In this document: piece by piece, positions 111 through 21,748 of the stretch | Layout of the letters: the number at the start of each line of letters is the position of its first letter | Numbering within the stretch: the stretch's first letter is position 1 | Origin: Acaryochloris marina MBIC11017 | GTDB lineage: Bacteria; Cyanobacteriota; Cyanobacteriia; Thermosynechococcales; Thermosynechococcaceae | Length of the DNA: 32,000 bases | Assembly (NCBI RefSeq): GCF_000018105.1 | Contig: NC_009925.1 | Coordinates: 6,030,001-6,062,000, forward strand | Direction: 5' to 3' | Notes under the pieces: model-generated | What the model saw: only the letters and a program-made list of their open reading frames with translations | Told to the model about the DNA's origin: nothing | The model's database searches: none | Made by a program: the position numbers and the translations under genes

Positions 111-886
111 GGTGAGATCAGAGAGATAAGCAACATCAGCACGATGGGCTGTCTTAATTAGGGATTTAATGCTCGATTGTGTTGATCAGCCATAGATCGT
201 TGATCTCTAATGCAGGAGAGGGTTTAGGGTGATGCTTGCTGCTGATATTATTTGGCAGGTGATGACAGATGCAAACTATCAACCCCCAAAAAGATCACCC
301 CCAATTGTGATTAAGGAGGTCAGTCTGGAAAGATGGATTTGTTTTTGTGTATAAATTAATGCCACTATTCCTGATGGAAATATCACCTAATGACTGATAC
401 CTCTGGCAGTAAATAACTTATGCCGAACCTATGAAAAAGATGCATAATTGATTAATATTTTTCCGAATAATATAGAAAAGATTATTTTTTGTTTCGAGTC
501 ACTGACTTCACCAGAATTTCACATATTATGATTTCAACTGAATGGTGATATCTGTCGTTGAGTGAATAGAACTGTTCTACATCGCCCAACTGTTTCAAAA
601 ATCAAGTAGTCGCGGCATCATCTTTTACTTAGGTGGGGGATCGGTTAGACTCCTTTTCTTGCCTTAAGTAAAGGGATGGTTTCTTGCGCTTCTACTCCTG
701 AAAAGAAGTCTTGTCTTTCTAGGAATTTTTATCGTGATACACCTTCCAAATCAGTACGAAAATTTTTGGTTGTGGGTTAAGAACTCAAAATGCCTCTAAT
801 ACTTTGTTAGTTGGTGAAGTTTTAGAGAATGTCATCTGCGTTACTGTTGCAGATGCTCTGTAGTGGTGTCTTATCCCTTGTTATCT

Positions 887-3469
887 ATGAAGAAGCAATA
901 TCAACGGGAACTTCTCTCGTATCTAAGCTGGCATCGATTATGCCTATCCCTGCTGGGTGTGGGGTGTATGTTCGCGATTACTGTTGTTTTTTCAGAAGAG
1001 AGGGTGTTAGCAGAACCTACTGAGCAGGTATGGGTTGCTAATACAAATAACTTAGAGCAAAGAGGAAAAGCTCTTTTTGACGCTAGACAATTTCCTCAAG
1101 CGGCTGATGTATTGCGCGCAGCTGTTGGACAGTATCAACAGCGAGATAATCGGGTGGGTGAAGCGATTGCTCTGAGTAATTTAGCGTTGGTTTATGAGCA
1201 GTTGGGACAATGGCCCGAAGCAAATCAGGCCATAGAACAGAGTCTTGAACTATTACAAGGGCAATCGACTCCTGAGGCAGGACAGTTATTAGCGCAGGTG
1301 CTGAACACTGAAGGGCAGTTAAAGTTGGCCCAAGGGCAAGCCCAGTTGGCATTGAAGGCTTGGCAACGATCAGAAGAGATATTTACACAGATTGGCGATA
1401 CAGAAGCAGTGACTCGCAGTCGGGTGAATCAAGCCCAGGCGTTACAGTCGATGGGGCAGTATCGCCGATCAATTAAAACCCTTAGAAAAGTTACGACTGA
1501 CTTGGCGGAGCAGCCAGATTCGTTGACTGAAGTGGTGGCGCTGAGAAGTCTGGGGGAAGCGCTCCGGGTGGCAGGCGAGTTGCCTGATGCGCGGGAAGCA
1601 TTGGAAAAAAGTGTAGAAATGGCTGGGCGGCTGGACTTGCTGAAAAATAAGGCTGCAGCTCAGCTAAGTTTAGGAAATGTGTTGAGGGCTGAAGGGGAGA
1701 ATGATCCAATGCAGTTGCAAGCTGCTTTGAGGATTTATGAGCAATTGGCCACTGAATCTGACGAAAGTCAAGTTCAGGCTTTTTTAAATCAGTTCAGTTT
1801 GCTGGTTCAAATGAAGCAATTTGCCCAAGCGGAGGGTTTATGGCCACAGGTTTCTGCCAGCTTGCAACAATTACCACTTAGCCGATCTTCAATCTTTGCC
1901 TATTTAAATGTGGTTCATAGTTTGTCTCAACTGCGTAGCACAAGTATGGACACGGTTGCGATCCGGGCGCAATTGTTCAGGCAGGCTTTAAAGCAAGCGA
2001 AGACTTTAGGGGATGGTCGGGCAGAATCCTATGTGTTGGGTGGGTTGGGTGCGTTGTATGAGGAGACGGGGCAATGGGCTGAGGCGGAACGGTTAACTCA
2101 ACAGGCATTGAAGAAGGCAATTAATGACCCAGAAATTGCATTTCGCTGGCAATGGCAGTTAGGGCGATTGCAAAAAGTGCAGGGGAATCGAGATAAAGCG
2201 ATTTCTGCATACTCTGGAGCGGTTCAAACGCTGAAGTTACTGCGGAAGGACTTGATTGCAGTGAACCCGGAAGTGCAGTTTTCGTTTCGGGATAATGTGG
2301 AACCCATTCATCGGCAGTTGGTGGATTTGCTTTTAGAAGTAGAGGAAGGACAGCCAAGTAGCAAGAACTTGGAGGCTGCACGCTTAACCATTGAATCTTT
2401 GCAGTTGGCGGAGTTAGATAACTTTTTTCGAGAAGCCTGTTTGGATGCAAACCCGGTAGTGATTGATGAAATTGATCCCAGGGCTGCAGTTGTTTATCCT
2501 ATTATTTTGCCGAAACGGGTGGCGGTAATTGTAAGTTTGCCGGGTAAGAAATTACGGTTATATTCAACTGAGGTTTCGTCAAACAAAGTAGAGAGGACAG
2601 TTGATAGGTTGCGGTTGTCTTTAGGGCAGCCCAATAGTACGAGATATTTAGCTCTTTCTCAGCAAGTTTATAATTGGTTGCTCCGTCCAGCGGAAGCTGA
2701 CTTTATCGATAGCAAAACGGAAACGCTGGTTTTTGTTTTGGATGGAGTATTGAGAAATGTACCCATGTCTGCCTTGCATGATGGTGAGAGTTATTTAGTG
2801 GAGAGATACGCAGTTTCTGTTACACCAGGGTTGCAATTGGTTGAACCTAAACCCTTAGTTTTAGATCAGGTAAAAGTGCTAACCGCTGGTTTATCTCAAC
2901 CTGTTCAAGGTTTTTCTGGTTTGCCTTATGTTGAATCCGAATTGAATCAAATTGGGACTATAGTTTCTAGCCGAAATTTACTCAATCAAGCTTTTACTAG
3001 GTCGGCATTCCAAAGAGAAGTAAGTACTGAACCTTATTCAGTGGTGCATTTAGCAACTCATGGTCAATTTAGTTCAAAGCTAGAGGATACCTTTTTGCTG
3101 ACTTGGGAGGATAAAGTTAATATTACTCAACTTCGCGATTTGCTGAGGACAAGGGAATTACGAAAGGATAGTGCTATTGAATTATTGGTGTTAAGTGCGT
3201 GTGAAACAGCAGTTGGAGATAGTCGGGCTGCTTTGGGATTAGCTGGTATGGCAGCGAGGTCAGGAGCTAGAACCACGCTGGCAACATTATGGCAAGTTGA
3301 TGATCAAGCCACGTCAATATTAATGGCAAGGTTTTATGAATTACTCAATATTAATGACATGTCAAAAGCTAGAGCGTTGCAAGTTGCACAAAAAGAAATG
3401 CTTATAAAATTAAACAGACAGCATCCAAGCTATTGGTCATCTTACATTTTATTAGGTAACTGGAAATAA
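887..3469 (+). CDS. Exported TPR-repeat / CHAT-domain (caspase-like Cys-His) protease
   Basis: Long ORF; I prefer ATG 887 (MKKQYQ...) over the track's GTG 863. There is an N-terminal hydrophobic signal/anchor segment (LCLSLLGVGCMFAITVVF). The middle holds degenerate TPR-like repeats (GEAIALSNLALVYEQLGQWPEANQAIEQSLEL; ESYVLGGLGALYEETGQWAEAERLTQQAL). The C-terminal ~300 aa has CHAT dyad motifs VVHLATHGQF (His codon 3059-3061) and LLVLSACETAVG (Cys codon 3200-3202), plus the tail YWSSYILLGNW. Confidence 0.9.
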   Translation: MKKQYQRELLSYLSWHRLCLSLLGVGCMFAITVVFSEERVLAEPTEQVWVANTNNLEQRGKALFDARQFPQAADVLRAAVGQYQQRDNRVGEAIALSNLALVYEQLGQWPEANQAIEQSLELLQGQSTPEAGQLLAQVLNTEGQLKLAQGQAQLALKAWQRSEEIFTQIGDTEAVTRSRVNQAQALQSMGQYRRSIKTLRKVTTDLAEQPDSLTEVVALRSLGEALRVAGELPDAREALEKSVEMAGRLDLLKNKAAAQLSLGNVLRAEGENDPMQLQAALRIYEQLATESDESQVQAFLNQFSLLVQMKQFAQAEGLWPQVSASLQQLPLSRSSIFAYLNVVHSLSQLRSTSMDTVAIRAQLFRQALKQAKTLGDGRAESYVLGGLGALYEETGQWAEAERLTQQALKKAINDPEIAFRWQWQLGRLQKVQGNRDKAISAYSGAVQTLKLLRKDLIAVNPEVQFSFRDNVEPIHRQLVDLLLEVEEGQPSSKNLEAARLTIESLQLAELDNFFREACLDANPVVIDEIDPRAAVVYPIILPKRVAVIVSLPGKKLRLYSTEVSSNKVERTVDRLRLSLGQPNSTRYLALSQQVYNWLLRPAEADFIDSKTETLVFVLDGVLRNVPMSALHDGESYLVERYAVSVTPGLQLVEPKPLVLDQVKVLTAGLSQPVQGFSGLPYVESELNQIGTIVSSRNLLNQAFTRSAFQREVSTEPYSVVHLATHGQFSSKLEDTFLLTWEDKVNITQLRDLLRTRELRKDSAIELLVLSACETAVGDSRAALGLAGMAARSGARTTLATLWQVDDQATSILMARFYELLNINDMSKARALQVAQKEMLIKLNRQHPSYWSSYILLGNWK

Positions 3470-3705
3470 CTTATTATGGTCACTAAAATCTCATTTTAAT
3501 CCCGAAAATGATGCTTATTATAAAGCTAGCAAAAAGTGCAGCTAATCGAAAACCACCATCCTCGGATAAAAATACTTTATTGATAGTAGATTTATAAAGC
3601 AGTTAATGTCTGGAATTTATAAAAACTTTTTAATAAAAGCAAGCAAGGTTAAATGTGAATGGTGTATTTTAAAGTTGTTTAAGTATTCATTAGTGAGGTT
3701 GCAAA

Positions 3706-4356
3706 ATGTCTAAGCATAGAAATATTTTTTCCCAGGTTTTGATATTTGTATTTGCATTGAGTTTACCTTTTCTAGCTTCTTCGGCAGCTCTAGCTTATGA
3801 TCAACCCTGGAAGTGTACTTCGGATTCTACAGCAACCCTATATGAATCAATCATACTAAATGATAGTGATTGTCCTCGCGAATGCTTAGATGAAAAGGAG
3901 GAGTGTCCATATAAATTCAAAGTAAAGCGTCAGAATACTCCTGATCCTAATGCTGCAACAGCTTATATACAGTTAGGAGATGAATTCTTACTTGGTGATT
4001 TTCGCAGACAGAAAGGGTGTGATACGAAGGAAAGAAATGAGCTTGCTTTAGAGGCATATCGAATAGCAAAATATGAATCAAGTGAAGCAAAAGATGCAAA
4101 AGAAGAAAGTAGTAATTTCTATTCATGGATTGCTGCAAGCTCTAGTATTCCCTATGTGAAAAGACGTATGGGTGAAATAAGCCAACCTGAAGCACAAAGC
4201 AGAATTGATGCTCTGTTTGATAAATACTGCTCTATAGCTGATGACAGTACTACTTGCGTTCTGTCTAAGAATCCCGTCTGTCCTGCCTTTAATAATGGGA
4301 TTAACAATGGATGGTATTTTGGTCCTCATTGCCGTCTATGTAACATACAGCCTTGA
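3706..4356 (+). CDS. Hypothetical secreted Cys-rich protein (216 aa), no recognisable family
   Basis: ATG start preceded by gtgaggttgc. Clear signal peptide (VLIFVFALSLPFLASSAALA|YDQ). About 12 Cys are in clustered pairs (DCPRECLDEKEECPY, TTCVLSKNPVCP, HCRLCN). It is followed by a 13-bp perfect hairpin. The region is AT-rich, so ORF calling is less certain than for its neighbours. Confidence 0.6.
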   Translation: MSKHRNIFSQVLIFVFALSLPFLASSAALAYDQPWKCTSDSTATLYESIILNDSDCPRECLDEKEECPYKFKVKRQNTPDPNAATAYIQLGDEFLLGDFRRQKGCDTKERNELALEAYRIAKYESSEAKDAKEESSNFYSWIAASSSIPYVKRRMGEISQPEAQSRIDALFDKYCSIADDSTTCVLSKNPVCPAFNNGINNGWYFGPHCRLCNIQP

Positions 4357-4439
4357 GTCCTACAACTCTTGTATGGCAGCTACAATTAGCTAGTTTTCTA
4401 AGTTGGATTTTATCCTTAATGAACTTATTGCTGTTGTTT

Positions 4440-4470
4440 ACTGTTGGAGAAGATAATCTTCTCCAACAGT
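4440..4470 (+). terminator. Perfect 13-bp stem / 5-nt loop hairpin downstream of the Cys-rich ORF
   Basis: ACTGTTGGAGAAG (4440-4452) ATAAT CTTCTCCAACAGT (4458-4470) are exact reverse complements. The trailing sequence TGTCCTATG is not a classic U-tract, so terminator function is uncertain. Confidence 0.4.
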
Positions 4471-4684
4471 TGTCCTATGTAAGATGCATCATATATAAGT
4501 CTCTTTAAATCCAAAGTATAAGAAGATGATGACTTATTTTAAATTGCATATTTCTTTTGATAATTATAATGTAATGTTTGATAAAATTAGCATTCTGAAT
4601 TTAGAAGAAATGTAATTTGAATGCATGAAATGAAGAATAGTTTCAAGATTTTAGATGAATTTATGTTGATTTTTCTTGCTTAAA

Positions 4685-7516
4685 ATGAGTGAAAATTCAA
4701 GAGTGAATAACTTTATATTTAGAACTCTATGTTTGATAAGTTTCAGTATGCCTTGGGGATGCTTATGTCATGCTCAAGTAGTTAGTGATAATACACTAAC
4801 AATTCCAACTGTAGTTTCCACCTCTGATGCGCAAAATTTTATTGTTTCTGGAGGTGTAATAGTTAACCAAAAAAACATATTCCATAGCTTCAGGAATTTC
4901 TCTATTCCTAAAAATGGTTCAGTAATCTTTAAAAATCTTTCTGTTGAGAATATTATTAGTCGAGTGACAGGTTCTAACCCATCGTATATTGATGGCTTGA
5001 TTACTGCTAACGCTAATTTATTTCTTGTCAATCCTAAAGGAATTTTTTTTGGTCAAGGTTCCCAACTCAATATTGATGGTTCATTTGTAGCAAGTACAGC
5101 TAATCAAATAAACTTTGAAGATGGCCATTTTTTTAGTACTCACACTAATGAAGCTCCTATTTTGACAATGAGCATGCCGACTGGTCTTCAATTGGGTAAA
5201 GATGCTTCTAGTATTGGTATTACGGGAGATTTTTTAGATCCTTTTCTGAGTGTTCAGCCAGGTAAGTCGTTGGTGCTCATTGGTAATGGTCTATTTCTCC
5301 AAGGAGGTGCTTTAGCTGCCCCATCAGGTAGAATTGAGCTGGCGAGTGTTGATGATTTTTCAGTTGTAGGACTTAAAAAAGCCTCTGAAGGATTTACTCT
5401 CAATTTTGATCCTGTAAAGAATTTTCAGATTATCCGCCTTTCAAAAGGTGCATTTATTGACACGTCTGATTTTTTTGCTGGGCCTATCCGTATATATGGA
5501 AAAGACATATCATTGGTGGATAGATCAGCAATCACAGCCTTTAACTTTATTGATGATTTACCTGGTGCGAGTATTAATGTCCAGGCTACAGAGTCTTTTA
5601 AACTTAGCAATCAGAGTTCAATTAGCGTAGGTGATGGGAATAATGGCAAAATTTCTATAAGTGCTAAGCGTCTTTCTCTTAGCGATTTTTCTATTATTGA
5701 TGCTAGTACTATATTCTTAGGCACGAAAGGTAGCATTATTATTAGGGCTTCTGAATATGTACTTATTGATAAAGGTAGTGCTATATCAGCCTTCACTACT
5801 GGTAATGATGCTGGTGAAATTTCAATACATACAGGGCAGCTTATTCTACGTGATGGTGGACAAATTGACAGTACAACGTTCTTTGGTGCTAAGGGTAATG
5901 CTGGAAATCTACTAATTGAAGCCACAGAATCCATAGATATATTTGGTCAAATAACAACTTCAAATGGTTTAACCTTTGTAAGTAATTTATTTGTAGGAAC
6001 TGCTGGATCAGGGACTACTGGCAATGGTGGAAATATTAACCTTAAAACAAAGCGTCTCTCTGTTACTAATAGCGGTACTATTTCTGTTGCATCTCTTCGG
6101 GGCAGTTTAGGACAAGCTGGTACATTATCCATCGATGCTTCAGATTATGTATTAATTGACGGGCAAGATACCGTCATTTCCGCTGAAAGTAGCAGCCCAT
6201 TGCCTGCTGGGGATATTACTATTAATACGGGATCCTTTCGTATTCAGAATGGGGCAACAATTTCAGCATCAACCACTGGTCCAGGTACTGCCGGAACCAT
6301 ACAAATTAAATCCGGTAGCTTCAGTGCAAGCGGTCCTTCGAGTGGGGTATTTACCACTACGACTAGCAGTGGAGCTGGGGGTGACATCATCATCGATACT
6401 CAATTATTCAAACTATTTGATCGGGCAGTCATTGATGCTCGTACAACTGATAGTGGAATCGGCGGGAACATCTTTGTCCAAGCAAATCTATTAGAAATTA
6501 GTTCTGGTGGTCAATTAGTGACTACTACTTCAGGTCCCAGCGCTGCAGGAAATATTTCCCTCCAGGTCCTAGATAGTATCGTCTTAGAAGGACGTGATAG
6601 TGGTCTATTTGCCAATACTGATCCAGGCTCCAATGGGCCTGGAGGGAATATTTTCGTCGATCCTCCTATAGTCATTATTCGTGATAATGCTGGGATTAGA
6701 GTTGATAGCCAAGGGACAGGGCCTGGAGGGAATATTGATTTACTGGCTGGTAATCTTACCCTGCAAAATGGCGGGTTTATTTCTGCCGAAACGACAAGCG
6801 GGCAAGGGGGGAATATCGGGCTGAGAATTAGTGATGTTTTGCAATTGCAAAATCAAAGCAGAATATCAGCCACCGCGGGTCGCAATGGAGAGATTGGCGA
6901 TGGGGGTAATATCAATATTTTTGCTCAATTTATTGTGGCGAATCCGTTTGAAAATAATGACATCACGGCCAATGCCTTCACCGGTACAGGTGGAAATATA
7001 TCCATCCAAACAGAGGCGATCTTTGGTTTTCAAGTGGTGGATGATTTGACCCCTTTTAGTGATATTTCTGCAAGTTCTCAATTAGGGTTATCTGGAACCG
7101 TCAGTATTGACACTCCTGAAACCGACCCCACTGAAGGATTAGTGGATCTCCCCGCTGCTGTCGTAGATCCTTCTAGTTTAGTGTCCCAGGCTTGTATCGG
7201 ACACTCAGGAGAACTTGCCAGTGAAATTAGTGAATTTACCGTTACTGGACGGGGAGGAGTACCCGCTAATCCAACGGAGACATTACGACAAAACTCGACG
7301 TTGACTGAATGGATTGCCCCTGAGGGCCAAAATACTTCAGCGACAAAGCCCTCCTCTAGAGTTGAAACGAGTCAGGTGACCGATAGTCCACACTTAATTA
7401 TCGAAGCTCAAGGCTGGAAAACGAATAAACAAGGTCAACTTGTTCTAACAGCAGAACCACAACCGCCTTTAGCTCATATTGCAGGACTAACCCAAGCTAG
7501 ATGCCCAAAAACTTAG
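4685..7516 (+). CDS. Filamentous-haemagglutinin N-terminal (TPS) domain exoprotein with beta-helix repeats
   Basis: I prefer ATG 4685 (MSENSR...) over TTG 4676. Signal peptide ends CLCHA|QVV. TPS-domain motifs: NIFHSFRNFSIPKNGSVIFKN, IISRVTGSNPSYIDGLI, ANLFLVNPKGIFFG. About 8 periodic G-x-GGNI coils recur every ~28-30 aa. They include an exact 18-nt direct repeat GGGCCTGGAGGGAATATT at 6635-6652 and 6719-6736. The C-terminal motif FTVTGRGGVPANP...EAQGWKTNKQGQLVLTA is typical of cyanobacterial members. No toxin-like C-terminal domain was recognised. Confidence 0.9.
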   Translation: MSENSRVNNFIFRTLCLISFSMPWGCLCHAQVVSDNTLTIPTVVSTSDAQNFIVSGGVIVNQKNIFHSFRNFSIPKNGSVIFKNLSVENIISRVTGSNPSYIDGLITANANLFLVNPKGIFFGQGSQLNIDGSFVASTANQINFEDGHFFSTHTNEAPILTMSMPTGLQLGKDASSIGITGDFLDPFLSVQPGKSLVLIGNGLFLQGGALAAPSGRIELASVDDFSVVGLKKASEGFTLNFDPVKNFQIIRLSKGAFIDTSDFFAGPIRIYGKDISLVDRSAITAFNFIDDLPGASINVQATESFKLSNQSSISVGDGNNGKISISAKRLSLSDFSIIDASTIFLGTKGSIIIRASEYVLIDKGSAISAFTTGNDAGEISIHTGQLILRDGGQIDSTTFFGAKGNAGNLLIEATESIDIFGQITTSNGLTFVSNLFVGTAGSGTTGNGGNINLKTKRLSVTNSGTISVASLRGSLGQAGTLSIDASDYVLIDGQDTVISAESSSPLPAGDITINTGSFRIQNGATISASTTGPGTAGTIQIKSGSFSASGPSSGVFTTTTSSGAGGDIIIDTQLFKLFDRAVIDARTTDSGIGGNIFVQANLLEISSGGQLVTTTSGPSAAGNISLQVLDSIVLEGRDSGLFANTDPGSNGPGGNIFVDPPIVIIRDNAGIRVDSQGTGPGGNIDLLAGNLTLQNGGFISAETTSGQGGNIGLRISDVLQLQNQSRISATAGRNGEIGDGGNINIFAQFIVANPFENNDITANAFTGTGGNISIQTEAIFGFQVVDDLTPFSDISASSQLGLSGTVSIDTPETDPTEGLVDLPAAVVDPSSLVSQACIGHSGELASEISEFTVTGRGGVPANPTETLRQNSTLTEWIAPEGQNTSATKPSSRVETSQVTDSPHLIIEAQGWKTNKQGQLVLTAEPQPPLAHIAGLTQARCPKT

Positions 7517-7620: not shown

Positions 7621-8376
7621 TTAAGGGTCAGTGCGGCAAACGGAACTTGACCATAAATCCAGACGTTGATTCATATTAATCGAAGATCCATCGGTGGAAT
7701 AAAGTATTTGAAATACATCTGACCACAGCCCTTTTTCCCCGAAATACTGGGCTGAGTTCAGGTCTGTATGCTTTTGTGAGAGTTTAGGATTTTGTGATTT
7801 CTTGACCTTGGCTAATTCAGCCGCTATCAGTTGACGCTCTGCTGATGGCATTACCTCAAACTCATATCGAACAGTCGTTTCAGAATTGGAAGCTTCCCAA
7901 ATATAGGCTTGCCCCGATTGCAAGGGCTTGCCATCGAATGCAACCTGTTCCTTGCCAGTTAGGTCTGATCTCTGCCAAATTACCTCATCTGTGTCATAGT
8001 CTCGCACCAGCAGATTAGACACTTCCCCACGCCATAAAAATAGAGGTTGACTGCTCCAGATTACATTAGTCTGACCCAATACGCCTGGAGAGATTAAACA
8101 AAGATTTCCCCTGCCCACCAAAGAGGGTTCCGGGCGCTGCTTAAACATCTCAAAAATACTGTTGAACACCGCCTCAAAAGTCGAAGATGTGGGCACATGC
8201 TTATCTTTCTTAACTTGACCGGACTTTGCAGATGTTTTTTGTTGATCCGTTTGCTTAGAACTAGAGTCTTGATGTGTAATAGGCTCTCGTTTTTCTTGCT
8301 TTTCCATTCCCCACACATGACTTGGGGAGGCCAATACTAATACTTGGAGTAAAATCAGCCAGCTCACTCTATGCAT
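7621..8376 (-). CDS. Secreted protein, DUF928-like
   Basis: Signal peptide MHRVSWLILLQVLVLASPSHVWG. A charged low-complexity linker follows. The core RGNLCLISPG...SSQPLFLWRGEVSNLLVRD...GKPLQSGQAYIWE matches my memory of the DUF928 pattern (R-G-x-x-C...P, P-x-F-x-W, L-x-x-G-x-x-Y-x-W). The start overlaps the upstream gene's stop by 8 nt. Confidence 0.6.
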   Translation of the reverse strand: MHRVSWLILLQVLVLASPSHVWGMEKQEKREPITHQDSSSKQTDQQKTSAKSGQVKKDKHVPTSSTFEAVFNSIFEMFKQRPEPSLVGRGNLCLISPGVLGQTNVIWSSQPLFLWRGEVSNLLVRDYDTDEVIWQRSDLTGKEQVAFDGKPLQSGQAYIWEASNSETTVRYEFEVMPSAERQLIAAELAKVKKSQNPKLSQKHTDLNSAQYFGEKGLWSDVFQILYSTDGSSINMNQRLDLWSSSVCRTDP

Positions 8377-10840
8377 AATCCCTTCCCCAATAATGTGAAA
8401 AACTGACGATCCAGACTGAAGCTAAGGGAAATAGACAAGGAATTAAAATCGCAGCACCAACAAAAAATTGCCAACTGATCATCACATATCCCCCCGTTAA
8501 GACTAATAGACTCAAGATAAGATGTACCCGATTAACTGGCAATATTATTCTCCGATCAACTAACAAAACGAAACCTTTTGCCAGCAATGCTAAGACGAAA
8601 ACCATTATTACAGTTGGGATAGGCACAACTAATCGCTGAGTGAGGAAATGTTGAAACATATAGGCATGGGCTTCACCCCCGGTATAGACTGATAGCCCTT
8701 CCGTATTAGCTTTTCCAACTCCCCTCTCTCTTACCTGCCAATACGCCATTGCTTTTGGAACTGCAAAATTATCCAGTACGCCATCATATCCTCCAGGAGC
8801 TAGAATCACCACTTGGTTTGAGAAGTCAGCTTTTTCCCCGAAAGCTGCTAAACCGTTCAATTGCCACGCAGGTATCCGCTGAAATACTCGATTAGCCGGA
8901 ATCGAAAAATCAATAATTGGCCGAAACCATAGTTGTCCTAAATAGCTTGCCCCAGTTGTTACGGGATGCGAAGTGAATTCTTTGAGAATCGAGATTTTCC
9001 CTTCTTCCTGAGAATCAGATTGCAGATTCGTCATTAAACGGGATTGCAATACCTCTTGCCCTTGCATGCTTGGCCTAATCTGATTATTGTCTGGAAACTC
9101 TTGTGAATAGGCAGATAGTAATGACAGCAAGTAACCAAACGGACAGGATTGTTCACAAGACTTGAATGAGTGAGGTAGCTTTACATGAGTGGGAAAAGCA
9201 TTTACATTACCTTCTAAGCTCCACTCAGGTTCAGCGATTCCTGTTTCTGGATTAACCCCTACATCTCCATTTATTGGATCAGATATAGAGGCGAATACAA
9301 ACCAAACTTTCTTGCGGTCAATCGCAGATCGGATAGATTGCCCTAAAACCTGATCCTTCTCTGGCTGCTGACGATCAAACAAGTAGTCAATGCCAATAAT
9401 CCGAGCATCCAAGTCAACCAGCCGATCAATTAGGCCAGCTAAATAAGCCCGATCCATCGGAACAGGTTGACTCATCTGAGATCGCCGAATCGACTCTGAA
9501 TCAATTTGTACTAATAGGACCGGAGGTGTTTCCACCGCTGCCGGAACCTGTCCAGTTAAATCTCGATAAATCGCTTGCGTCCACAGCCGATAATCCAATA
9601 GCACTGACTGCAAAGGGGGCCAAAGACTTAACCCCACCAGCAATCCCAACGCAATTCCTTCATATCGAGTGGGAAGCCAAGCCTTAAGGTTTTGTCGCCA
9701 ACTGGATGGGACTAGCCGAAAAGACTCTGTTTCAGGATGCCGAAAAAAAGATGGCACTAAATAAGCAGAAGGAAAACTGAGACTCTGCTCTAACTTAAGG
9801 TCCTGACTCGCAAGTCGCAATGCATCATGCGCATCTACATATTGGCTCAAGTGATGTAAAAACTGCCCTAGAAAAACCTGGGCCACTTGATTATGGATGG
9901 GCTCTCGCATGACGGCCACCTGACTTAACCCCAGATCAATCAAAGCGGCTGCAATACTCAAACCACTACAAGAATTAAAAATGGCTAACTGCAACCCCCT
10001 AGCCTGTAGTTTTTCTAGATAGGGTTTAATCTCCTTAATCGTGACCACTTCGCCAGGGGCAATAGCCAGCTCTCCCCCCGTCAACATCGTTTCATTGCTA
10101 TGCCCTGCAAAAAACAAAATATCCCACCCTTGGGGGTCTGAAATCGCCTCACAGATCTGTTGCTTTAGTTCGGGGATAGAAATTTGGGGTTGCCAACCGA
10201 CAAATTTCACCTCAGCTTGGGCTGCCAGCGACGTTATGGCCGCCAGGTCGGCCTGGAAATCCAACCCCGATTCATCGCCCATAATGGCCAACACTCGAGT
10301 TCGTCGCCGCCTGCGAGGAGGGGCCATCTGAGCTGCCCGTCGGACATTGACAGGGCAACGGGCAATCCGAATGTTGTCATCAGCTTCTGTTCCTAGCTCC
10401 CAGGTCTCCCAAGGTAAGCGAGCTAAATCAATCGGATCGCAAACTAAATAGACATCTGTTTTGAGGTTGGGGGCTGCCTGAGCCGATTTAGTGATCGCTG
10501 TCCTCAGTTCAAATAGAGCTGCACCACGCAACCATAGTTGAAACTGCTCTGTTAAGAGGGCTTCTGTCCGCACCAACTCACTTTGCCAGTCCACACCAAT
10601 CGGCGTGAGGCGTCCCTGAGCTTCCATGCGGCCTCGAATCGGGGTAACAGGCTCTGGGTGGGCAATGGCTTTATAGAAATTCAGGTAAGCCCTCAGCCAG
10701 GTTTGATAGGCCTTAGTGAGGGCAGTGGGATACTCAACTTGAGCAGATAAATGCTGCCCCTGGCCCCATGACAAATCAAACACACAAGCCTGGCCGATCT
10801 GCTGCACCTTAAGCCGAAAAGAAGGATGACTGCTGCTCAT
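8369..10840 (-). CDS. CHAT-CHASE2 fusion: membrane protein with cytoplasmic caspase-like protease domain and extracytoplasmic CHASE2 sensor
   Basis: N-terminal CHAT has DILFFAGHSNE (His247, codon 10100-10102) and LAIFNSCSGLS (Cys291, codon 9968-9970). A hydrophobic segment GIALGLLVGLSLWPPL follows. CHASE2 signature: PPVLLVQIDSESIRR...PMDRAYLAGLIDRLVDLDARIIGIDYLFD. There are C-terminal hydrophobic segments (VVPIPTVIMVFVLALLAKGFVLLV; LILSLLVLTGGYVMISWQFFVGAAILIPCLFPLASVWIVSF). No kinase, cyclase or GGDEF output follows the last helix. Confidence 0.85.
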   Translation of the reverse strand: MSSSHPSFRLKVQQIGQACVFDLSWGQGQHLSAQVEYPTALTKAYQTWLRAYLNFYKAIAHPEPVTPIRGRMEAQGRLTPIGVDWQSELVRTEALLTEQFQLWLRGAALFELRTAITKSAQAAPNLKTDVYLVCDPIDLARLPWETWELGTEADDNIRIARCPVNVRRAAQMAPPRRRRRTRVLAIMGDESGLDFQADLAAITSLAAQAEVKFVGWQPQISIPELKQQICEAISDPQGWDILFFAGHSNETMLTGGELAIAPGEVVTIKEIKPYLEKLQARGLQLAIFNSCSGLSIAAALIDLGLSQVAVMREPIHNQVAQVFLGQFLHHLSQYVDAHDALRLASQDLKLEQSLSFPSAYLVPSFFRHPETESFRLVPSSWRQNLKAWLPTRYEGIALGLLVGLSLWPPLQSVLLDYRLWTQAIYRDLTGQVPAAVETPPVLLVQIDSESIRRSQMSQPVPMDRAYLAGLIDRLVDLDARIIGIDYLFDRQQPEKDQVLGQSIRSAIDRKKVWFVFASISDPINGDVGVNPETGIAEPEWSLEGNVNAFPTHVKLPHSFKSCEQSCPFGYLLSLLSAYSQEFPDNNQIRPSMQGQEVLQSRLMTNLQSDSQEEGKISILKEFTSHPVTTGASYLGQLWFRPIIDFSIPANRVFQRIPAWQLNGLAAFGEKADFSNQVVILAPGGYDGVLDNFAVPKAMAYWQVRERGVGKANTEGLSVYTGGEAHAYMFQHFLTQRLVVPIPTVIMVFVLALLAKGFVLLVDRRIILPVNRVHLILSLLVLTGGYVMISWQFFVGAAILIPCLFPLASVWIVSFSHYWGRDYA

Positions 10841-12132
10841 GAGTTTTTATTGGAGGCGAATTTAAAAGGCGAAAGTCGTAAGGTTGCAGCGGGTGATCGC
10901 GAGTCTGCTGCTGACAAGGTCACCCAAAACTGTTCCTCAAACTCCCCGACCACTTGTGCATAAATACAAGTGTCTTCTTCCGTCGGGGTAAGCATCGGAT
11001 CTGCTAGCACTTTTTCGGTATCACTAACCAGAAGCTTCACTGTCTGTTCGAGTGTCGTTTCTGGTTTAGCACCGACAACAACAAGTAACGTCCATTCTGT
11101 GTTGGGTAAATTTGGTTCCACTGGCCAGACTATTGAATATAAACGCAGTTGAGAAAGTCCCAAGGTTAGATCCCGGTACGCCCCCCCCGCAGAAGTAGGA
11201 ATATCCATACCCTGTCGTTGTAACTCCCCAATCACCGCAACAATCACTGGATCCGTCGAGCGCAGGGCGGTTGCCAAGGGGGGCATCAGTATCCAACTGA
11301 ACTGCCGAGCGGCATCATCTAATCTATGTTGAAGCCATGCCCCAACATTTATCGGTTGCGCTGGTTCAGTGACTGGAACAATTGAATCCTGGGCTGGCTT
11401 ATGCTGCCAATACTCACTACACCACCTTAGCCAATCCGCGTTCCTCAAAATGGAGGCAGCTTCCTGCCAAGTAAACAATTGCCAAAATTCGGCACCTGAA
11501 CGAACTTGATCGAGCTTCTCTGTTAAGAGAGATTCAGTAAGAGCCGTAGATGTATGAGATTGTAGTTCTGGTTGTGGGACAGTCTCTAAACAACGCAACC
11601 ACAGGAGTAACTCATTGGCAGATGCAAACGCTTGGGGTGAAATCCTATAGGTCCAGTCCGGTTGTGGGATTAAAGACGGTAAAAGTTGAACAGCAACATC
11701 CCATCTCAATCCCCCCTGAATCTCTACCTGTGCTAGTTCTTCTAGGACGTCCACTTTCACAAAGCAGTGAGGAACAAAGCCTGCAATCTCTAGGGCGGCT
11801 CTGGGGATTGCCACCTCAGCATCAGCTAAGCCAGAGACTAACACTGCGACTCGCCATTCCCCAACCAATAGATAGCTGGCATCGCAAAAGGGTAGGTACG
11901 TGGTACCTAAAAAGGGACGAACCCTTACCCCTAGATAGCTCCGCTCCGCCAACCACGATTCCAAAGCTGTGAGCGCTAATCCATGGAGGTAACCTCGCCA
12001 TTGCCAGGCTTCTGGCAGCGATTCACTTTGCTGAATTGCTTCTGCAATCTGGGTCTCAGACAGTGAGATCGCCGTAATGGGCAGGGCGGTGAAGTCTGCT
12101 TTCAGGTCTGGGGGAGGGGATACGTCAGTCAT
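10837..12132 (-). CDS. Hypothetical cytoplasmic protein, DUF1822-like
   Basis: 431-aa ORF with no signal peptide. The N-terminal third (LPITAISLSETQIAEAIQQ...YLHGLALTALESWL...YLLVGEWRVAVLV...VAIPRAALE...HCFVKVDVLEELAQVEIQGGL) resembles remembered DUF1822 sequences. Its position between a sigma-like gene and a CHASE2 gene matches the usual DUF1822 context. Its stop overlaps the next start (ATGA, 10837-10840). Confidence 0.55.
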   Translation of the reverse strand: MTDVSPPPDLKADFTALPITAISLSETQIAEAIQQSESLPEAWQWRGYLHGLALTALESWLAERSYLGVRVRPFLGTTYLPFCDASYLLVGEWRVAVLVSGLADAEVAIPRAALEIAGFVPHCFVKVDVLEELAQVEIQGGLRWDVAVQLLPSLIPQPDWTYRISPQAFASANELLLWLRCLETVPQPELQSHTSTALTESLLTEKLDQVRSGAEFWQLFTWQEAASILRNADWLRWCSEYWQHKPAQDSIVPVTEPAQPINVGAWLQHRLDDAARQFSWILMPPLATALRSTDPVIVAVIGELQRQGMDIPTSAGGAYRDLTLGLSQLRLYSIVWPVEPNLPNTEWTLLVVVGAKPETTLEQTVKLLVSDTEKVLADPMLTPTEEDTCIYAQVVGEFEEQFWVTLSAADSRSPAATLRLSPFKFASNKNS

Positions 12133-12135
12133 GAT

Positions 12136-13542
12136 TCAGAGCGTCCTATCCAGATAATCACAGAGTCGCTGGGCATATAGGCTGCTCACGGGCCGATTCC
12201 GAGGGACACTGGCTTCGGCGGCAGCGGTCTGCATCACCCCATCGACTTGTTCAGTCAGGAGGGTATCGAGCTGTTTATTTAATGCGTGTAATCGATGAGG
12301 ATCGGCGAATGGTTGAGCGACTTGCCAAACCCGCTCCCGCAGGTCGAGTAAGATTTGATGGCGAATATCTGCTCTTAGGTCTTTGAGCTGAAGTAATCGG
12401 GTGACCTGATATTGGGCCTTCAGATCAATGCGAGGTGCAATATCGCTCATCGCCAACCCTTGGCAATGAAACAAAAATAAAGCTGTTAGATACTGATGAG
12501 ATTTATTAGATTTTTGAGTTTGGAATCTCTTGAGCTTATCTGCCAAAACGCCCTCTATGGTCTTGTCTAAACTCTGTTGGAATTGCTGTCGATACTGCTG
12601 TAGAAATTGTGTTTGAGAGTCTGGATCTTCATCTGAAGGGGGGGCAGCGATCTGCATTACCTGTCCAGTGGTCGGATGCAGCTGGTCCAGGGATTGGGTT
12701 GGTGCTGGCCCACCTCGGGCATAAATTCGATATTCACGCAGCAATCTAGCTAAATTCTGTAATTGACTTAGAACCATCTGGGGTTCAACTGGGTCAGAGT
12801 TGCTGATTCCGAATTGGGCAATTTGCTGTAGCTGAGAAGGAGAGGGTTCCCGACATCGACCTGTTTTTCCCGCTTGGCGCTGACGAACGCGATCGCGTCG
12901 ATATACAGAATGATATCTGTTCAGTAAGTTCACGTTGTGTTCGATTTCATGAGATGTGAGGGAGTGAAACTCTCCTAATATTCGGGATATCTGTTGAGGA
13001 GTAGTGTCGTTAAGAATTGCCCAATCACTTATGAGATAAACGCCATGTTCTAGCAGAAAAGTGTTGAGGCTATGGTCTCGGCGAACTAACTGAGCTGTCC
13101 AAGTTGATAGGCCTCCTTGTTTGATATCGAAAGAAGATAATATCTTTTCAATTAGAGACTGATATGAACTTTGGATTTGAGGTTGATTCTGGAGGTTTAA
13201 GGGGCCATGATCAAGCACAAAAGAGTAGAGATCCTTAGTCGTAAAGCCATGATCTTGGCCAAACTGAGCACAAAGTTGTCCACAAACTTGAGCAATCACA
13301 TTAGAAATAAAGCACTTCAAACATAGTCCTGCCAGCTCCTGATCACTGGTTTTTGCTTCTTCAGGATGAAGCCAAAGTTGAAATAAACGTTGCTGTAACT
13401 GATCGTCAGAAAGGGATGACTGATCCTCTGCTATTGACAACTGTGTTCGCAAAAATTGTTTAGCCGGCATTACGACTTCCACTTTTTTTTGACCCGTTGC
13501 GTCAATCCTCACCCATTGCCAGTAACGAAAGGCATTTCCCAC
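12136..13542 (-). CDS. Divergent sigma-70-family-like transcription factor
   Basis: The ORF starts at GTG 13542, with an in-frame alternative ATG at 13470 (MPAKQFL...). A C-terminal segment YLTALFLFHCQGLAMSDIAPRIDLKAQYQVTRLL looks like a sigma region 4.2 HTH. The N-terminal helix-rich part (LAGLCLKCFISNVIAQVCGQL...DLYSFVL...SDWAILND) resembles the sigma-70-family proteins annotated next to DUF1822 genes in cyanobacteria. The stop lies 3 nt before the DUF1822-like start. Confidence 0.55.
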   Translation of the reverse strand: MGNAFRYWQWVRIDATGQKKVEVVMPAKQFLRTQLSIAEDQSSLSDDQLQQRLFQLWLHPEEAKTSDQELAGLCLKCFISNVIAQVCGQLCAQFGQDHGFTTKDLYSFVLDHGPLNLQNQPQIQSSYQSLIEKILSSFDIKQGGLSTWTAQLVRRDHSLNTFLLEHGVYLISDWAILNDTTPQQISRILGEFHSLTSHEIEHNVNLLNRYHSVYRRDRVRQRQAGKTGRCREPSPSQLQQIAQFGISNSDPVEPQMVLSQLQNLARLLREYRIYARGGPAPTQSLDQLHPTTGQVMQIAAPPSDEDPDSQTQFLQQYRQQFQQSLDKTIEGVLADKLKRFQTQKSNKSHQYLTALFLFHCQGLAMSDIAPRIDLKAQYQVTRLLQLKDLRADIRHQILLDLRERVWQVAQPFADPHRLHALNKQLDTLLTEQVDGVMQTAAAEASVPRNRPVSSLYAQRLCDYLDRTL

Positions 13543-13837: not shown

Positions 13838-16800
13838 TTAAAAGATAACCTGGGGTTGTTTAGCCTGAGCAAAGTACCGTTCGAAAGCAGACTTTAACTC
13901 ATCCACACGAATGGGTTTACTGACATAGTCATGCATTCCTGCTGCCATACACATTTCCCGGTCACCCTGCATGGCATTGGCAGTTAACGCAATAATATAG
14001 GGCTGCTCCTCTTCCTGCCACTGTTCTGTGATGTGCCTGGCTGCTGTTAGGCCATCCATCTCTGGCATTTGCACGTCCATTAACACGACATCGTAGGATT
14101 GGCGATGCAGAGCTTCTAGGACTTCTTCGCCATTGTTGGCTACATCTGCTCGGTAACCCAACTGTTTGAGAATCAGTAGCGCCACTTTTTGATTGACGAC
14201 AATATCTTCAGCTAACAGGATTTGCAGGGATGGATCACCCTGTTCTTCGGTATTAACTGGAGAAGGTACAGTGGGTTTAACTTGAACGCGCTGACCTTCA
14301 AAAATTTCTGCTAAGGCGTCGTACAAGTAGGATTGCTGGATGGGCTTATTGAGAATGGCAGAAAATTGAATTTCTTGCTTATGTTTGATAATTTCGTCTT
14401 GTCCCAAGGAACTGAGCATGACGAGGGGAAGGTGTTTCCTCTGATCGAGTTGGCGGATATGTCTCGCCAATTCGACACCATCCATTTCTGGCATTTGCAT
14501 ATCCAAAATCGCCAGATCAAACTTGGAATCACTTTCAAGGAGAGCTAGGGCTTCGGCTCCCCCGCTCACCGTTTGAATCCCCATGCCCCAGGTTTGGGCT
14601 TGTAGGGTTAAAATTCTGCGATTTGTGGGATTGTCATCCACCACCAGGAGCTGCTTCCCATCGAGGAGTTGTTGAGATTGATCGAGGGTATTTTCTCCCT
14701 CAGGGGCCACTGGCACCGCAATGGTAAAGAAAAAGCTTGACCCGACCCCGGCTTTGCTCTCGACCCAGATTCTGCCTCCCATCATTTGAGAAAGAGAGCG
14801 ACAGATGGCTAATCCTAGGCCGGTGCCACCATATTTTTTGGTGGTTGAGGCATCAACTTGGCTAAAAGATTTGAACAAACGATCCATGCGATCGGCCGGA
14901 ATGCCAATGCCTGAGTCTCTGACTTCAAATTGAATCAAACGGCGTTGATTTTGAATATCGGTAAAATTTTTCCGCTGGGAGGTTGTCTCAGGTTGGGTGA
15001 TGTCCGTATCGGTGATGTCCTGCACATAGATTACGACTTCCCCTTGCTCGGTAAACTTGACGCCGTTGGTGAGGAGGTTCACTAGAATTTGGCGGAGACG
15101 AGTGACATCCCCCACGATGTGATTGGGGGTCGAGGGATCGAATAAGTAAGCGAGTTCGAGCTGTTTATCAATGGCTCTTGGCGCAACTAGACGCAGGGAT
15201 TCTTCAATGCAGGCCCGTAGGCTAAAGGGTTGTTCTTCAAATTCCAACTTACCCGCTTCAATCTTGGAGAAGTCGAGGATGTCGTTGATCAGGGTTAACA
15301 GCGCATCCCCACTGCTTCGAATGGTTTCAACGAAATCCCGTTGTTGATTATCTAAAGTGGTATTTAGCAACAGTCCCGTCATACCAATGACCGCATTCAT
15401 GGGGGTGCGAATTTCGTGGCTCATAGTGGCTAGAAATTCACTCTTAGCAACGTTGGCTGCATCAGCATCTTTTCGAGCTTGTTTCAGGGCTGTATTGTTC
15501 TGAGTCAGTGTTTGGCGCTGCTGTTGTTCCTGTTCAAGGAGATGACCATGGGCTAGGGCGATGCCGACTTGTCCAGCAACAGCTTCGATGAGTTCAATTT
15601 CGGCTTGGGTCCAGTCCCGTTTGCGATCGCATTGCTGTAGCACTATCACCCCATTGGCTTTGCGCTGATAGGAGGTACGAATGGCTAGCATGGACTGAAT
15701 TTGGCCTTGTTCACAAATGTCTGAAACAGGTTGAATTAAGGGATCCCCCAGGGCATTGTCTGAGGCAACGGCCCGATCATGACGGAGTACCTTGCGGGCA
15801 TGGGGATTATTTTCCAACTGGATGTCGGTGCCGAGCATAGACGGCACCTCTCCAGTCAGGTATTCTGCAACGATGGGCAGATGGGGGTTAGGGTCGGTAA
15901 CGTAGGTATGGAGATGGCATCGACTGACCTGAAAGGTTTTGCCAATTTCTTGAACCGTGGCTTTAAAAATTTGTTGACGGTCTAAGTTTTTACGAATCTT
16001 ACGGGTGATTTTCTCTACCAATTCAGCCCGACGCATTTGCTGTTTGAGGGCTTCGGTGGCCGCTTTGGTTTCTGTAATATTGCGAATAGAGCCTGCCATA
16101 CGGGTGGGCTTGCCTTCAATGTCCCAGATGGCCTGGCCACGGCCGGAAACCCATAGGTAATAGCCTGCTTTCGATTTCAGGCGATACTCTACTTCATAGG
16201 GGACCAAATGTTCTAAGTGATGTTTGAGGGCCAAGGAGACCATCTCTTGATCATCGGGACAAATATGGGCTTTCCAGGTTTCTAACGTGCAAGGCAATTC
16301 TCCATCTTCATATCCCAACAATTGACCAAACCGGGGGGACAGATAAAAGGCTTTGTTGACGATATTCCAATCCCAGAGGACGTCACCGGATCCCTTGACC
16401 GCCAATTGAAACCGTTCCTCGCTTTCCTTTAAGGCGGCATCTGCTTGTTGGCGCTCAATAATTTGTTGTTGTAGCTGAGTTCGTTGGGCTTGCTCCTGTT
16501 CCAACAGTTCTGCTTGGGCTAGGGCAATACCGATTTGGTCTGCAACCGTTTCTAATAGGTCGATTTCTGCTGTGGACCAGGATCGAAAACAGTCTGTATA
16601 GGCCTCGGGTTGAGCCAGGTAATCTTCACGAGACAATCTGCGATCGCAATGCTGAAGGATAATTGCGCCATTGGGTTTTCCTTGATAGGACGTACGCACC
16701 CCTAACATTGACTTCAAGGTCACGGGCTGAGGATCCGAAATCAGGGTTTCTAGTAACCGATCGGTGTAGATATTCGGGGTTGTAACGGCTTGATCTTGGG

Positions 16801-18586: not shown

Positions 18587-18631
18587 AAGCGTTACCTAGT
18601 TAAAACCGGGGTTCCCCCTAATAAGACATTC

Positions 18632-21600: not shown

Positions 21601-21748
21601 AGGACGGTACTAAAATAAAGACCTCGGCAATGAGGCAGCTTCCTAACCCCATCATGCCAATCTGACGACCCAGTGGAGAACGAAGGGGGGGTAAACATTG
21701 TTTCAGACCATCAATCAGGCTAAACTTTGATGAATTCAGCGGCTGCAT
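18632..21748 (-). CDS. Hybrid sensor histidine kinase (2 TM + periplasmic loop, HAMP, HisKA-HATPase, REC, REC, HPt)
   Basis: TM1 is [20 protein letters not shown] and TM2 is [17 protein letters not shown], with a ~130-aa loop between them, followed by a HAMP-like segment. The kinase core has His[16 protein letters not shown] (His codon 20852-20854) and HATPase_c (DTGIGIP...GGTGLGLAI). Two receivers each carry DMQMPEMDG / [10 protein letters not shown] Pro/Ser-rich linker follows. The C-terminal HPt motif is [18 protein letters not shown]. Confidence 0.92.

Follow-up and report, generated by a model that had tools for sequence, protein, structure and literature searches.

The 32,000-nucleotide stretch of Acaryochloris marina MBIC11017 DNA analyzed here, called the window below, carries on its minus strand an open reading frame (ORF; 8369..10840) for an 823-residue protein that joins a CHAT protease domain to a CHASE2 sensor domain. 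It belongs to a tightly packed minus-strand operon of four genes, in which a sigma-like protein, a DUF1822 protein, the CHAT-CHASE2 protein, and a secreted DUF928 protein are encoded in this order; the operon recurs across cyanobacteria. We see about an even chance that the CHAT-CHASE2 protein is a four-pass inner-membrane receptor-protease, in which a signal would reach the CHAT domain and make it cut the DUF1822 protein or the sigma-like one, with a change in transcription as the result. All nucleotide coordinates are positions in the window, and residue numbers refer to the 823-residue protein unless stated otherwise.

From its N-terminus, the protein consists of an alpha+beta module, the CHAT domain, a first transmembrane (TM) helix, the CHASE2 domain, three further TM helices, and a short tail. 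Pfam places CHAT (PF12770) at residues 185-352 (E 4e-11; 43.3 bits, gathering score 24; profile positions 82-270 of 289) and CHASE2 (PF05226) at residues 400-751 (E 8e-18; 65.3 bits, cutoff 26.3; profile positions 4-252 of 257). Beyond these two, Pfam returned no family at E ≤ 0.01, including kinase, cyclase, GGDEF, or any other transmitter, and a scan against NCBIfam gave no match. Membership in the Peptidase C14 ortho- and metacaspases was rejected on the same Pfam result. The His/Cys dyad of the CHAT domain lies in the motifs FFAGHS (residues 243-248; His247 codon at 10100-10102) and IFNSCSG (residues 287-293; Cys291 codon at 9968-9970), and the CHASE2 signature is seen in the strings VLLVQIDSESIRR at 441-453 and RAYLAG...YLFD at 464-489. 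Hydropathy marks hydrophobic segments at about residues 394-414, 743-763, 770-790, and 794-814, and the last of these is followed by a tail of nine residues, SHYWGRDYA.

Projected onto the minus strand, the N-terminal module (residues 1-125) spans 10466..10840 and is delimited by predicted strands and helices and by conservation. It is followed by the caspase-fold CHAT protease domain (residues 126-370; 9731..10465), defined by Pfam, the invariant dyad, and structural matches, and by TM1 (residues 394-414; 9599..9661), defined by hydropathy, charge bias, and a modeled helix at 392-406/408-429. The CHASE2 sensor domain (residues 415-742; 8615..9598) is placed by Pfam and by the 1+3 TM helices around it, while TM2-TM4 (residues 743-814), together with the tail and the stop codon, occupy 8369..8614 on the basis of hydropathy, charge, and tail length. 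The protein thereby matches the canonical 1+3 TM framing of CHASE2 (PMC3501461). Canonical CHASE2 receptors, which include histidine kinases, Ser/Thr kinases, cyclases, and GGDEF proteins, share this sensor and this TM arrangement, but they carry their transmitter past the last TM helix. In the window protein, nothing but the nine-residue tail stands in this place, and the sole predicted cytoplasmic domain precedes TM1. The original prediction, made from the sequence of the window, had described this CHAT and CHASE2 architecture with the same motifs and had pointed out the missing C-terminal transmitter; its description and its numbering proved exact when set against Pfam, residue positions, and hydropathy.

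This architecture is not confined to the window. A search of 5.8 billion protein clusters recovered 1693 homologues at E ≤ 1e-5. The best 120 of them are 791-902 residues long, their alignments span 91-100% of the A. marina protein (at least 95% in most cases), and both Pfam domains are present in 111. Among named relatives, that of Acaryochloris thomasi is the closest, at 53% identity, and another contig carries a copy that is 99% identical; full-length homologues at 99% and about 50% identity rule out a pseudogene or a chance ORF. In a scan of GTDB r232, with one genome per species, relatives were found at 469 loci, the best 80 of which belong to cyanobacteria or unclassified metagenome-assembled genomes (MAGs), several genomes contributing two copies.

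Conservation was assessed in an alignment of 121 sequences sharing about 45% identity, which also underlies the charge statistics given below. His247, Cys291, and the flanking residues of the G-H-S and F-N-S-C-x-G motifs are invariant in all 121, an invariance that is hard to explain without catalysis at this level of sequence identity. CHAT is the best-conserved region of the protein, with a mean majority identity of 0.72 compared with 0.57 for CHASE2. Since 118 of the 121 members end no more than 17 residues past the last hydrophobic segment, the missing C-terminal transmitter is a trait of the family and not a peculiarity of the A. marina protein.

The topology was derived from hydropathy and from positive-inside charge statistics. 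The 15 residues before TM1 hold on average 3.9 lysines and arginines against 0.12 acidic residues (D+E), and the 15 residues after it 2.2 against 1.4. For the nine-residue loop between TM2 and TM3 the corresponding means are 2.85 and 0.45, for the TM3-4 loop both are 0, and for the C-terminal tail they are 2.2 and 0.58. Furthermore, none of the 121 family members has an N-terminal signal peptide. Due to this charge pattern and the lack of a signal peptide, the protein is predicted to be oriented N-in, CHASE2-out, and C-in, with the N-terminal module and CHAT in the cytoplasm, TM1 running from the cytoplasm to the periplasm, the CHASE2 domain in the periplasm, and the tail back in the cytoplasm.

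An AlphaFold2 (AF2) model built with 16 orthologues as input reached a mean predicted local distance difference test (pLDDT) score of 76.6. Its top Foldseek matches in the Protein Data Bank (PDB) were to Csx29, the TPR-CHAT protease of Craspase (best E 3.3e-9, range 3e-9 to 1e-8), followed by human and fungal separases (3e-8), a SAVED-CHAT filament (3e-8), and DdvA (8rot_A, 2.9e-6). Caspase-4 and caspase-9 were found lower down at 5-7e-4, along with caspase-6, gingipain, and a plant metacaspase. In the AF2 model, the predicted strands 241-245 and 285-289 directly precede His247 and Cys291, which is the pattern of the caspase fold. Interpolation onto the CHAT profile places the two residues at about positions 152 and 201, close to the positions of about 147 and 197 for H733 and C780 of a canonical TPR-CHAT protein encoded elsewhere in the window. 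A HMMER profile of the CHAT-CHASE2 family searched against all PDB sequences gave nothing relevant, and hhalign of the same profile against the TPR-CHAT protein of the window gave no meaningful alignment. A local hidden Markov model built from TPR-CHAT orthologues aligned exclusively in the region past the catalytic cysteine, and a relaxed BLASTP alignment of the dyad region was shifted by an insertion. As a whole, the motifs and the model support the assignment of the protein to the CHAT/caspase-fold proteases, with a predicted peptidase activity. The intact dyad, the caspase-like fold to be checked by structure prediction, and the placement of CHAT inside and CHASE2 outside the cell had all been part of the original prediction, and each of them is supported by the family alignment, by the AF2 and Foldseek results, or by the charge pattern.

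Ahead of CHAT lies a conserved alpha+beta module. In residues 1-125, the AF2 model shows strands at 7-15, 18-25, and 29-36, followed by helices, with pLDDT values of 85-90 outside a loop at residues 60-79 (10604-10663, minus strand). This loop, with pLDDT values below 50, is the single long, disordered, and length-variable stretch within the cytoplasmic part. It contains an L68-R69-G70-R71...G76 motif, of which R69 and G76 are each conserved in 120/121 sequences and R71 in 105/121, and which may be a site of autoprocessing (autocleavage) or of docking. Going by the published description, which it fits, the module is probably the 'EACC2' domain of Kaur and colleagues (PMC8195603).

The four genes of the operon are closely spaced. 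Three nucleotides separate the sigma-like gene from the DUF1822 gene, the latter overlaps the CHAT-CHASE2 gene by an ATGA, and an 8-nt overlap joins the CHAT-CHASE2 stop to the DUF928 start, the two genes being translationally coupled. Promoter and terminator scans returned no more sites than shuffled sequence did. To assess the conservation of this arrangement, neighbors were counted among the best 80 of the 469 loci, using those with enough flanking DNA. DUF928 lies directly downstream of CHAT-CHASE2 in 58 of 75 loci and is its most faithful neighbor, above the pair formed by the sigma-like and DUF1822 genes. DUF1822 is found directly upstream in 37/65 loci, the sigma-like and DUF1822 genes together upstream in 33/65, a sigma-like gene anywhere in the locus in 42/65, and all four operon genes in 32/62.

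The DUF928 gene (7621..8376, minus strand) closes the operon and encodes a secreted, divergent member of its family, 251 residues long, with an N-terminus resembling a signal peptide. Its own Pfam match is weak (E 0.014), and DUF928 is the best family for all ten orthologues tested, two of which exceed the gathering score. Cys93 and Cys247 (numbering of the DUF928 protein) are conserved in the family, and a hydrophobic stretch is present at the N-terminus of 44 of 53 orthologues. In the periplasm, the DUF928 protein may be a partner of CHASE2 or may sense together with it. On the other side of the CHAT-CHASE2 gene, the DUF1822 gene (10837..12132, minus strand) encodes 431 residues, with PF08852 at residues 22-410 (E 3e-18); a single-sequence search of the PDB gave nothing for it. 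This protein is a candidate substrate or adaptor of the protease.

The first operon gene (12136..13542, minus strand), which is conserved, encodes the 468-residue sigma-like protein, a member of a closed family without a Pfam or NCBIfam match. In a Pfam scan of 24 orthologues at E ≤ 10, no sigma70 domain was found, only scattered weak helix-turn-helix matches. The HMMER profile of the family returned nothing relevant from all PDB sequences, and a profile search of 1.84 billion representatives at E ≤ 0.001 gave 681 matches, of which the 150 listed are family members or fusions and form no bridge to canonical sigma factors. Likewise, no ORF of the 80 loci was picked up when RpoE served as phmmer query. 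The AF2 model (pLDDT 83.7) consists of helices, except for a short hairpin at the N-terminus, and its top three Foldseek matches are sigma-A chains of RNA polymerase holoenzymes, including that of Synechocystis, at weak E-values of 0.12-1. In hhalign against Escherichia coli RpoE, residues 130-168 of the sigma-like protein align weakly with sigma2 (FxxWLxRI...N; P 0.073) and residues 349-384 with the sigma4.2 helix-turn-helix (P 0.025); the comparison is weak since the RpoE template profile held near-identical RpoE sequences only (Neff, the effective number of sequences, 1). Both matches fall on signature regions, colinear and in the right order. The evidence that the 468-residue protein is a sigma factor is thus weak; its naming by Kaur et al. 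as one of the extracytoplasmic function (ECF) type is plausible.

Additional features of the sigma-like family concern its possible processing and its partners. The protein has a conserved N-terminal extension of about 60 residues, made up of a beta-hairpin and a helix, and its sole long disordered stretch is the inter-domain linker at its residues 283-297. Ahead of this linker lies a V-R-G-G motif, in which R276 is an arginine in 195 of 251 sequences (a lysine in 23) and G278 is conserved in 210/251. Some members are fused to DUF1822 (P0334, P0344), others combine CHAT, TRADD-N, and the sigma-like region (such as P0370), and further fusions involve AAA_35 with or without TRADD-like_N (fusion examples include P0241 and P0323). 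These fusions, some of which could be gene-calling artefacts, connect the sigma-like family with the network of TRADD-N and caspase proteins outlined by Kaur et al.

Within this framework, the reading we prefer runs as follows. The CHASE2 domain would read a periplasmic cue, possibly together with the secreted DUF928 protein, and the cue may come from the neighboring exported TPS, RTX, or TPR-CHAT proteins described further below. Passed on through the TM helices, the signal would gate the cytoplasmic CHAT protease and switch it on, a step to which autoprocessing at the L-R-G-R loop may contribute. CHAT would then cleave a cytoplasmic partner, for which DUF1822 is the best candidate and the sigma-like protein the alternative; DUF1822 leads because gene order puts it in the slot usually held by an anti-sigma factor. 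Such a cleavage would free or alter the transcription factor and change gene expression. In this way, a pair of the sigma/anti-sigma type would be controlled by regulated proteolysis, carried out by a caspase-fold protease and not by the DegS/RseP route.

Two characterized systems offer precedents, by analogy, for CHAT proteins coupled to sigma factors. In Craspase (Cas7-11/gRAMP-Csx29), Csx29 cleaves Csx30, which binds RpoE (PMC9825189; PDB 7zoq, 8eey). Csx29 is the best structural match of the protein studied here, and in Craspase, too, a CHAT protease of the cytoplasm is switched allosterically and has a specific substrate that is linked to an ECF sigma factor. In contrast, its activator is a target RNA on a CRISPR effector, Csx29 is soluble and has TPRs in place of the EACC2-like module, and sequence identity is 11-12%. 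The second precedent, DdvA of Myxococcus xanthus, is a transmembrane TPR-CHAT anti-sigma of the ECF factor DdvS with an incomplete active site (PMC11506125; PDB 8rot). Here too, a membrane-spanning CHAT protein is coupled to a sigma factor, and a signal is carried across the membrane to transcription. DdvA has the opposite polarity, however, with a periplasmic CHAT, a cytoplasmic zinc-binding anti-sigma domain, a single TM helix, and no CHASE2, whereas CHAT is predicted to be cytoplasmic in the A. marina protein, in which no anti-sigma domain is detected by Pfam, so that an anti-sigma role would fall to the separate DUF1822 protein. Membership in the DdvA-type TPR-CHAT anti-sigma group was rejected, as the protein has no anti-sigma or TPR domain, four TM segments, and a predicted cytoplasmic CHAT; its likeness to DdvA is limited to the CHAT fold. 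HetF of Anabaena PCC 7120 is another cyanobacterial CHAT-family protease, with a demonstrated substrate, PatU3, and a role that is regulatory and not lethal (PMC9457339, PMC8406250). It differs in lacking CHASE2 and in acting at the divisome and in heterocyst differentiation, and it is not among the homologues recovered here.

Several points weigh against the preferred reading. The equivalence of the dyad to a solved CHAT active site is drawn from the motif, the Pfam coordinates, and the level of the fold, and the topology is a rule-based prediction from hydropathy and charge. The sigma identity escapes HMMER in Pfam, in the PDB, and in the 1.84 billion representatives, and what speaks for it are hhalign P values of 0.025 and 0.073 and Foldseek E-values of 0.12 or more. 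Of the 65 loci with enough flank, 23, or about a third, are without a sigma-like gene in the vicinity, and in about half the sigma-like and DUF1822 pair is not found next to CHAT-CHASE2 on the upstream side. Because both are missing from many loci, the protease would be able to work unlinked from them or would have other substrates. Finally, a substrate, a ligand, or an activity has been shown for no member of the CHAT-CHASE2 family, and our literature search found no experimental work on it.

The concept itself has been published computationally between 2010 and 2021. A 'metacaspase-CHASE2' protein of Trichodesmium was listed by Jiang et al. in 2010 (PMC2853523) and described by Asplund-Samuelsson et al. 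in 2012 as having 1+3 TM helices, with the receptor facing outward and the metacaspase in the cytoplasm (PMC3501461). A 2020 review placed ligand-activated CHASE2-orthocaspases in a model of cell death (PMC7475262, Fig. 6). Kaur, Iyer, Burroughs, and Aravind then described systems in 2021 in which a constant N-terminal 'EACC2' and a caspase are combined with variable C-termini, including TM-flanked CHASE2 (PMC8195603, section 9 and Fig. 3H); they reported ECF sigma and DUF1822 neighbors and proposed that a stimulus activates the peptidase and thereby sigma-dependent transcription (section 9). The window protein is a further example of this large and widespread family.

Going by their descriptions, two of these published cases are among the closest known systems. 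The protein of Trichodesmium erythraeum IMS101 shares the order of caspase-type domain, TM helix, CHASE2, and three TM helices, along with the predicted topology and the suggested function, and a Trichodesmium MAG carries a full-length relative of the window protein at 43% identity (L052). The published Trichodesmium protein was presented as a single unusual sequence and classed as a metacaspase (Peptidase C14), whereas the window protein is a CHAT protein according to Pfam and comes from a family of hundreds of species. With the systems of Kaur et al., the window protein shares the caspase-type domain, the TM-flanked CHASE2 C-terminus, and the DUF1822 neighbor, and probably also the constant alpha+beta N-terminus; the sigma-type neighbor may be a further common trait, and the mechanism preferred here is in line with theirs. 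Their purely computational study leaves unmentioned the downstream secreted DUF928 and the TPS, RTX, and exported TPR-CHAT genes found here; the adjacency of CHASE2 and DUF928 in Nostoc punctiforme is mentioned in passing in the literature.

The central inference of the original prediction, a ligand-gated protease that signals by regulated proteolysis, is consequently a rediscovery. Its architecture, dyad, fold, and predicted topology are supported, and its novelty was overstated in view of PMC2853523, PMC3501461, PMC7475262, and PMC8195603. As for the neighbors it had singled out as candidate substrates, DUF1822 is present according to Pfam, while the sigma-like label is weakly supported and the N-terminal module and DUF928 had been missed. 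What is added here is a quantified neighborhood, with DUF928 as the most constant member and recurrent exported TPS, RTX, and TPR-CHAT proteins, and caution regarding the 'sigma' label.

A different role is suggested by the nearest structural relatives, which include the defense proteases Csx29 and SAVED-CHAT, and by Kaur et al., who group the family with systems of biological conflict and with apoptosis-like ones (PMC8195603). Activated by the receptor, CHAT could act as an executioner in death or defense, in the manner of an orthocaspase or of Craspase, cleaving many proteins or triggering cytosolic orthocaspases in a cascade and leading to growth arrest or programmed cell death, with the sigma-like and DUF1822 proteins controlling expression or serving as accessories. 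This corresponds to the model for CHASE2-linked orthocaspases in Fig. 6 of the 2020 review, and it would agree with the many loci that lack the sigma-like and DUF1822 genes and with the Peptidase_C14-DUF4384 orthocaspase gene near CHAT-CHASE2 in four loci. Nevertheless, none of the four operon proteins matched a PADLOC-DB v2 model at E ≤ 0.01, and the locus has no obvious mobile or defense-island context other than an IS1 transposase about 12 kb away. That half of the loci couple the protease closely, in one operon, to a gene for a probable transcription factor also points to a specific regulatory output, and we consider the executioner role unlikely.

Regulation could further proceed by direct processing of the sigma-like protein, with DUF1822 as an adaptor. 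CHAT would either remove the N-terminal extension of about 60 residues, an activation as in pro-sigmaE and pro-sigmaK, or cut at the V-R-G-G motif, an inactivation. The extension is conserved, R276 and G278 precede the disordered stretch 283-297, a similar L-R-G-R motif lies in the protease's own disordered loop, and fusions of CHAT, TRADD-N, and the sigma-like region exist (P0370, for example). The likeness of the motifs is short and could be due to chance, though, and CHAT specificities vary and are not predictable (PMC11506125, section 8). We regard direct processing as quite improbable.

The direction of signaling might also be inverted, by analogy to the effector-associated constant component systems, whose effector is the C-terminal part that varies. 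EACC2-CHAT would then sense or process, and CHASE2 with its three TM helices would act on the export or activity of DUF928, TPS, or RTX proteins, or on the membrane. The exported nature of the most conserved neighbors (DUF928, TPS, RTX) and the better conservation of the cytoplasmic part relative to CHASE2 are in line with this. Set against it, CHASE2 is treated in every characterized context as a sensor outside the cytoplasm that signals to transmitters inside it (PMC3501461, PMC2853523; Zhulin 2003 as cited in PMC8195603), and Pfam detects no pore or enzymatic signature in the C-terminal half, so that an inverted arrangement seems very improbable. Most improbable of all is an inert scaffold, in which CHAT would merely dimerize or dock and signaling would proceed by sequestration: mutated dyads are known from 44% of cyanobacterial orthocaspases (PMC7475262) and the active site of DdvA is incomplete (PMC11506125), but the dyad and its flanking motifs are invariant in all 121 aligned sequences of this family.

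If the receptor-protease mechanism is true, it would represent transmembrane signaling with a caspase-fold protease as the transmitter, replacing a kinase or a nucleotide cyclase. The recurring association of CHAT proteases with sigma factors, known from Craspase-Csx30-RpoE and DdvA-DdvS, would then reach into an envelope-sensing context outside CRISPR. Hundreds of species of cyanobacteria have the family, many of them with more than one copy, and the compact operon offers a complete candidate set consisting of a sensor-protease, a secreted partner, a putative anti-sigma, and a putative sigma factor. Since the concept was published before, the window contributes another example and a sharper list of neighbors, not a discovery.

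Convergent with the operon, three genes for exported proteins occupy 863..7516 on the plus strand. The first encodes the TPR-CHAT protein (863-3469), with an N-terminal hydrophobic signal or anchor, a Pfam CHAT match at 4e-57, and TPRs; the second a 216-residue, Cys-rich protein without a family that is secreted as judged from its N-terminus (3706-4356); and the third a 946-residue exoprotein of the filamentous-haemagglutinin type with a TPS domain (4676-7516; Pfam TPS 5.5e-51). No TpsB/FhaC transporter gene was seen within the window. Beside CHAT-CHASE2, TPS is found in 7/80 loci and a close TPR-CHAT homologue in 11/80. The combination of DUF928, TPS, and TPR-CHAT recurs in five loci (L005, L021, L046, L051, L075) and partially in four others (L009, L016, L057, L073). 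Possibly, although this is uncertain, the exported module is part of the operon's system. A larger conserved unit than that described in 2021 would result, in which DUF928 and CHASE2 would sense the exported module (TPS/RTX, TPR-CHAT) and CHAT would cleave DUF1822 to free the divergent sigma-like protein. We hold this extended unit to be rather unlikely; if true, it would be a caspase-based, cyanobacteria-specific equivalent of Gram-negative cell-surface signaling.

Other neighbors recur in subsets of the related loci. In the Lyngbya/Capilliphycus/Limnoraphis group (L011, L012, L013, L025, L027, L034), an RTX calcium-binding-repeat protein of about 235 residues follows DUF928, and these loci are without linked sigma-like and DUF1822 genes. 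The Peptidase_C14-DUF4384 orthocaspase lies within the 10-kb flanks of L008, L038, L057, and L076, and where its gene is complete, in three of these loci, it lies on the downstream side.

The region 13838-21748 (minus strand), which adjoins the operon on its upstream side, encodes two hybrid sensor kinases of very large size. The 1582-residue kinase, as read by eye, has an ammonium-transporter-like multi-pass N-terminus, repeated sensor regions, a kinase, and two receivers, and for the 1038-residue kinase Pfam reports HisKA, HATPase, two REC domains, and Hpt. Further away, the window encodes a REC-PAS-GAF-SpoIIE (PP2C) phosphatase (22193-24298, plus strand), the IS1-family transposase ORF mentioned above (25468-26157, plus strand; DDE_Tnp_IS1, E 3e-22), a pentapeptide-repeat protein (26240-27511, minus strand), and an SLH-domain protein of the CAP/SCP family (27782-29005, plus strand).

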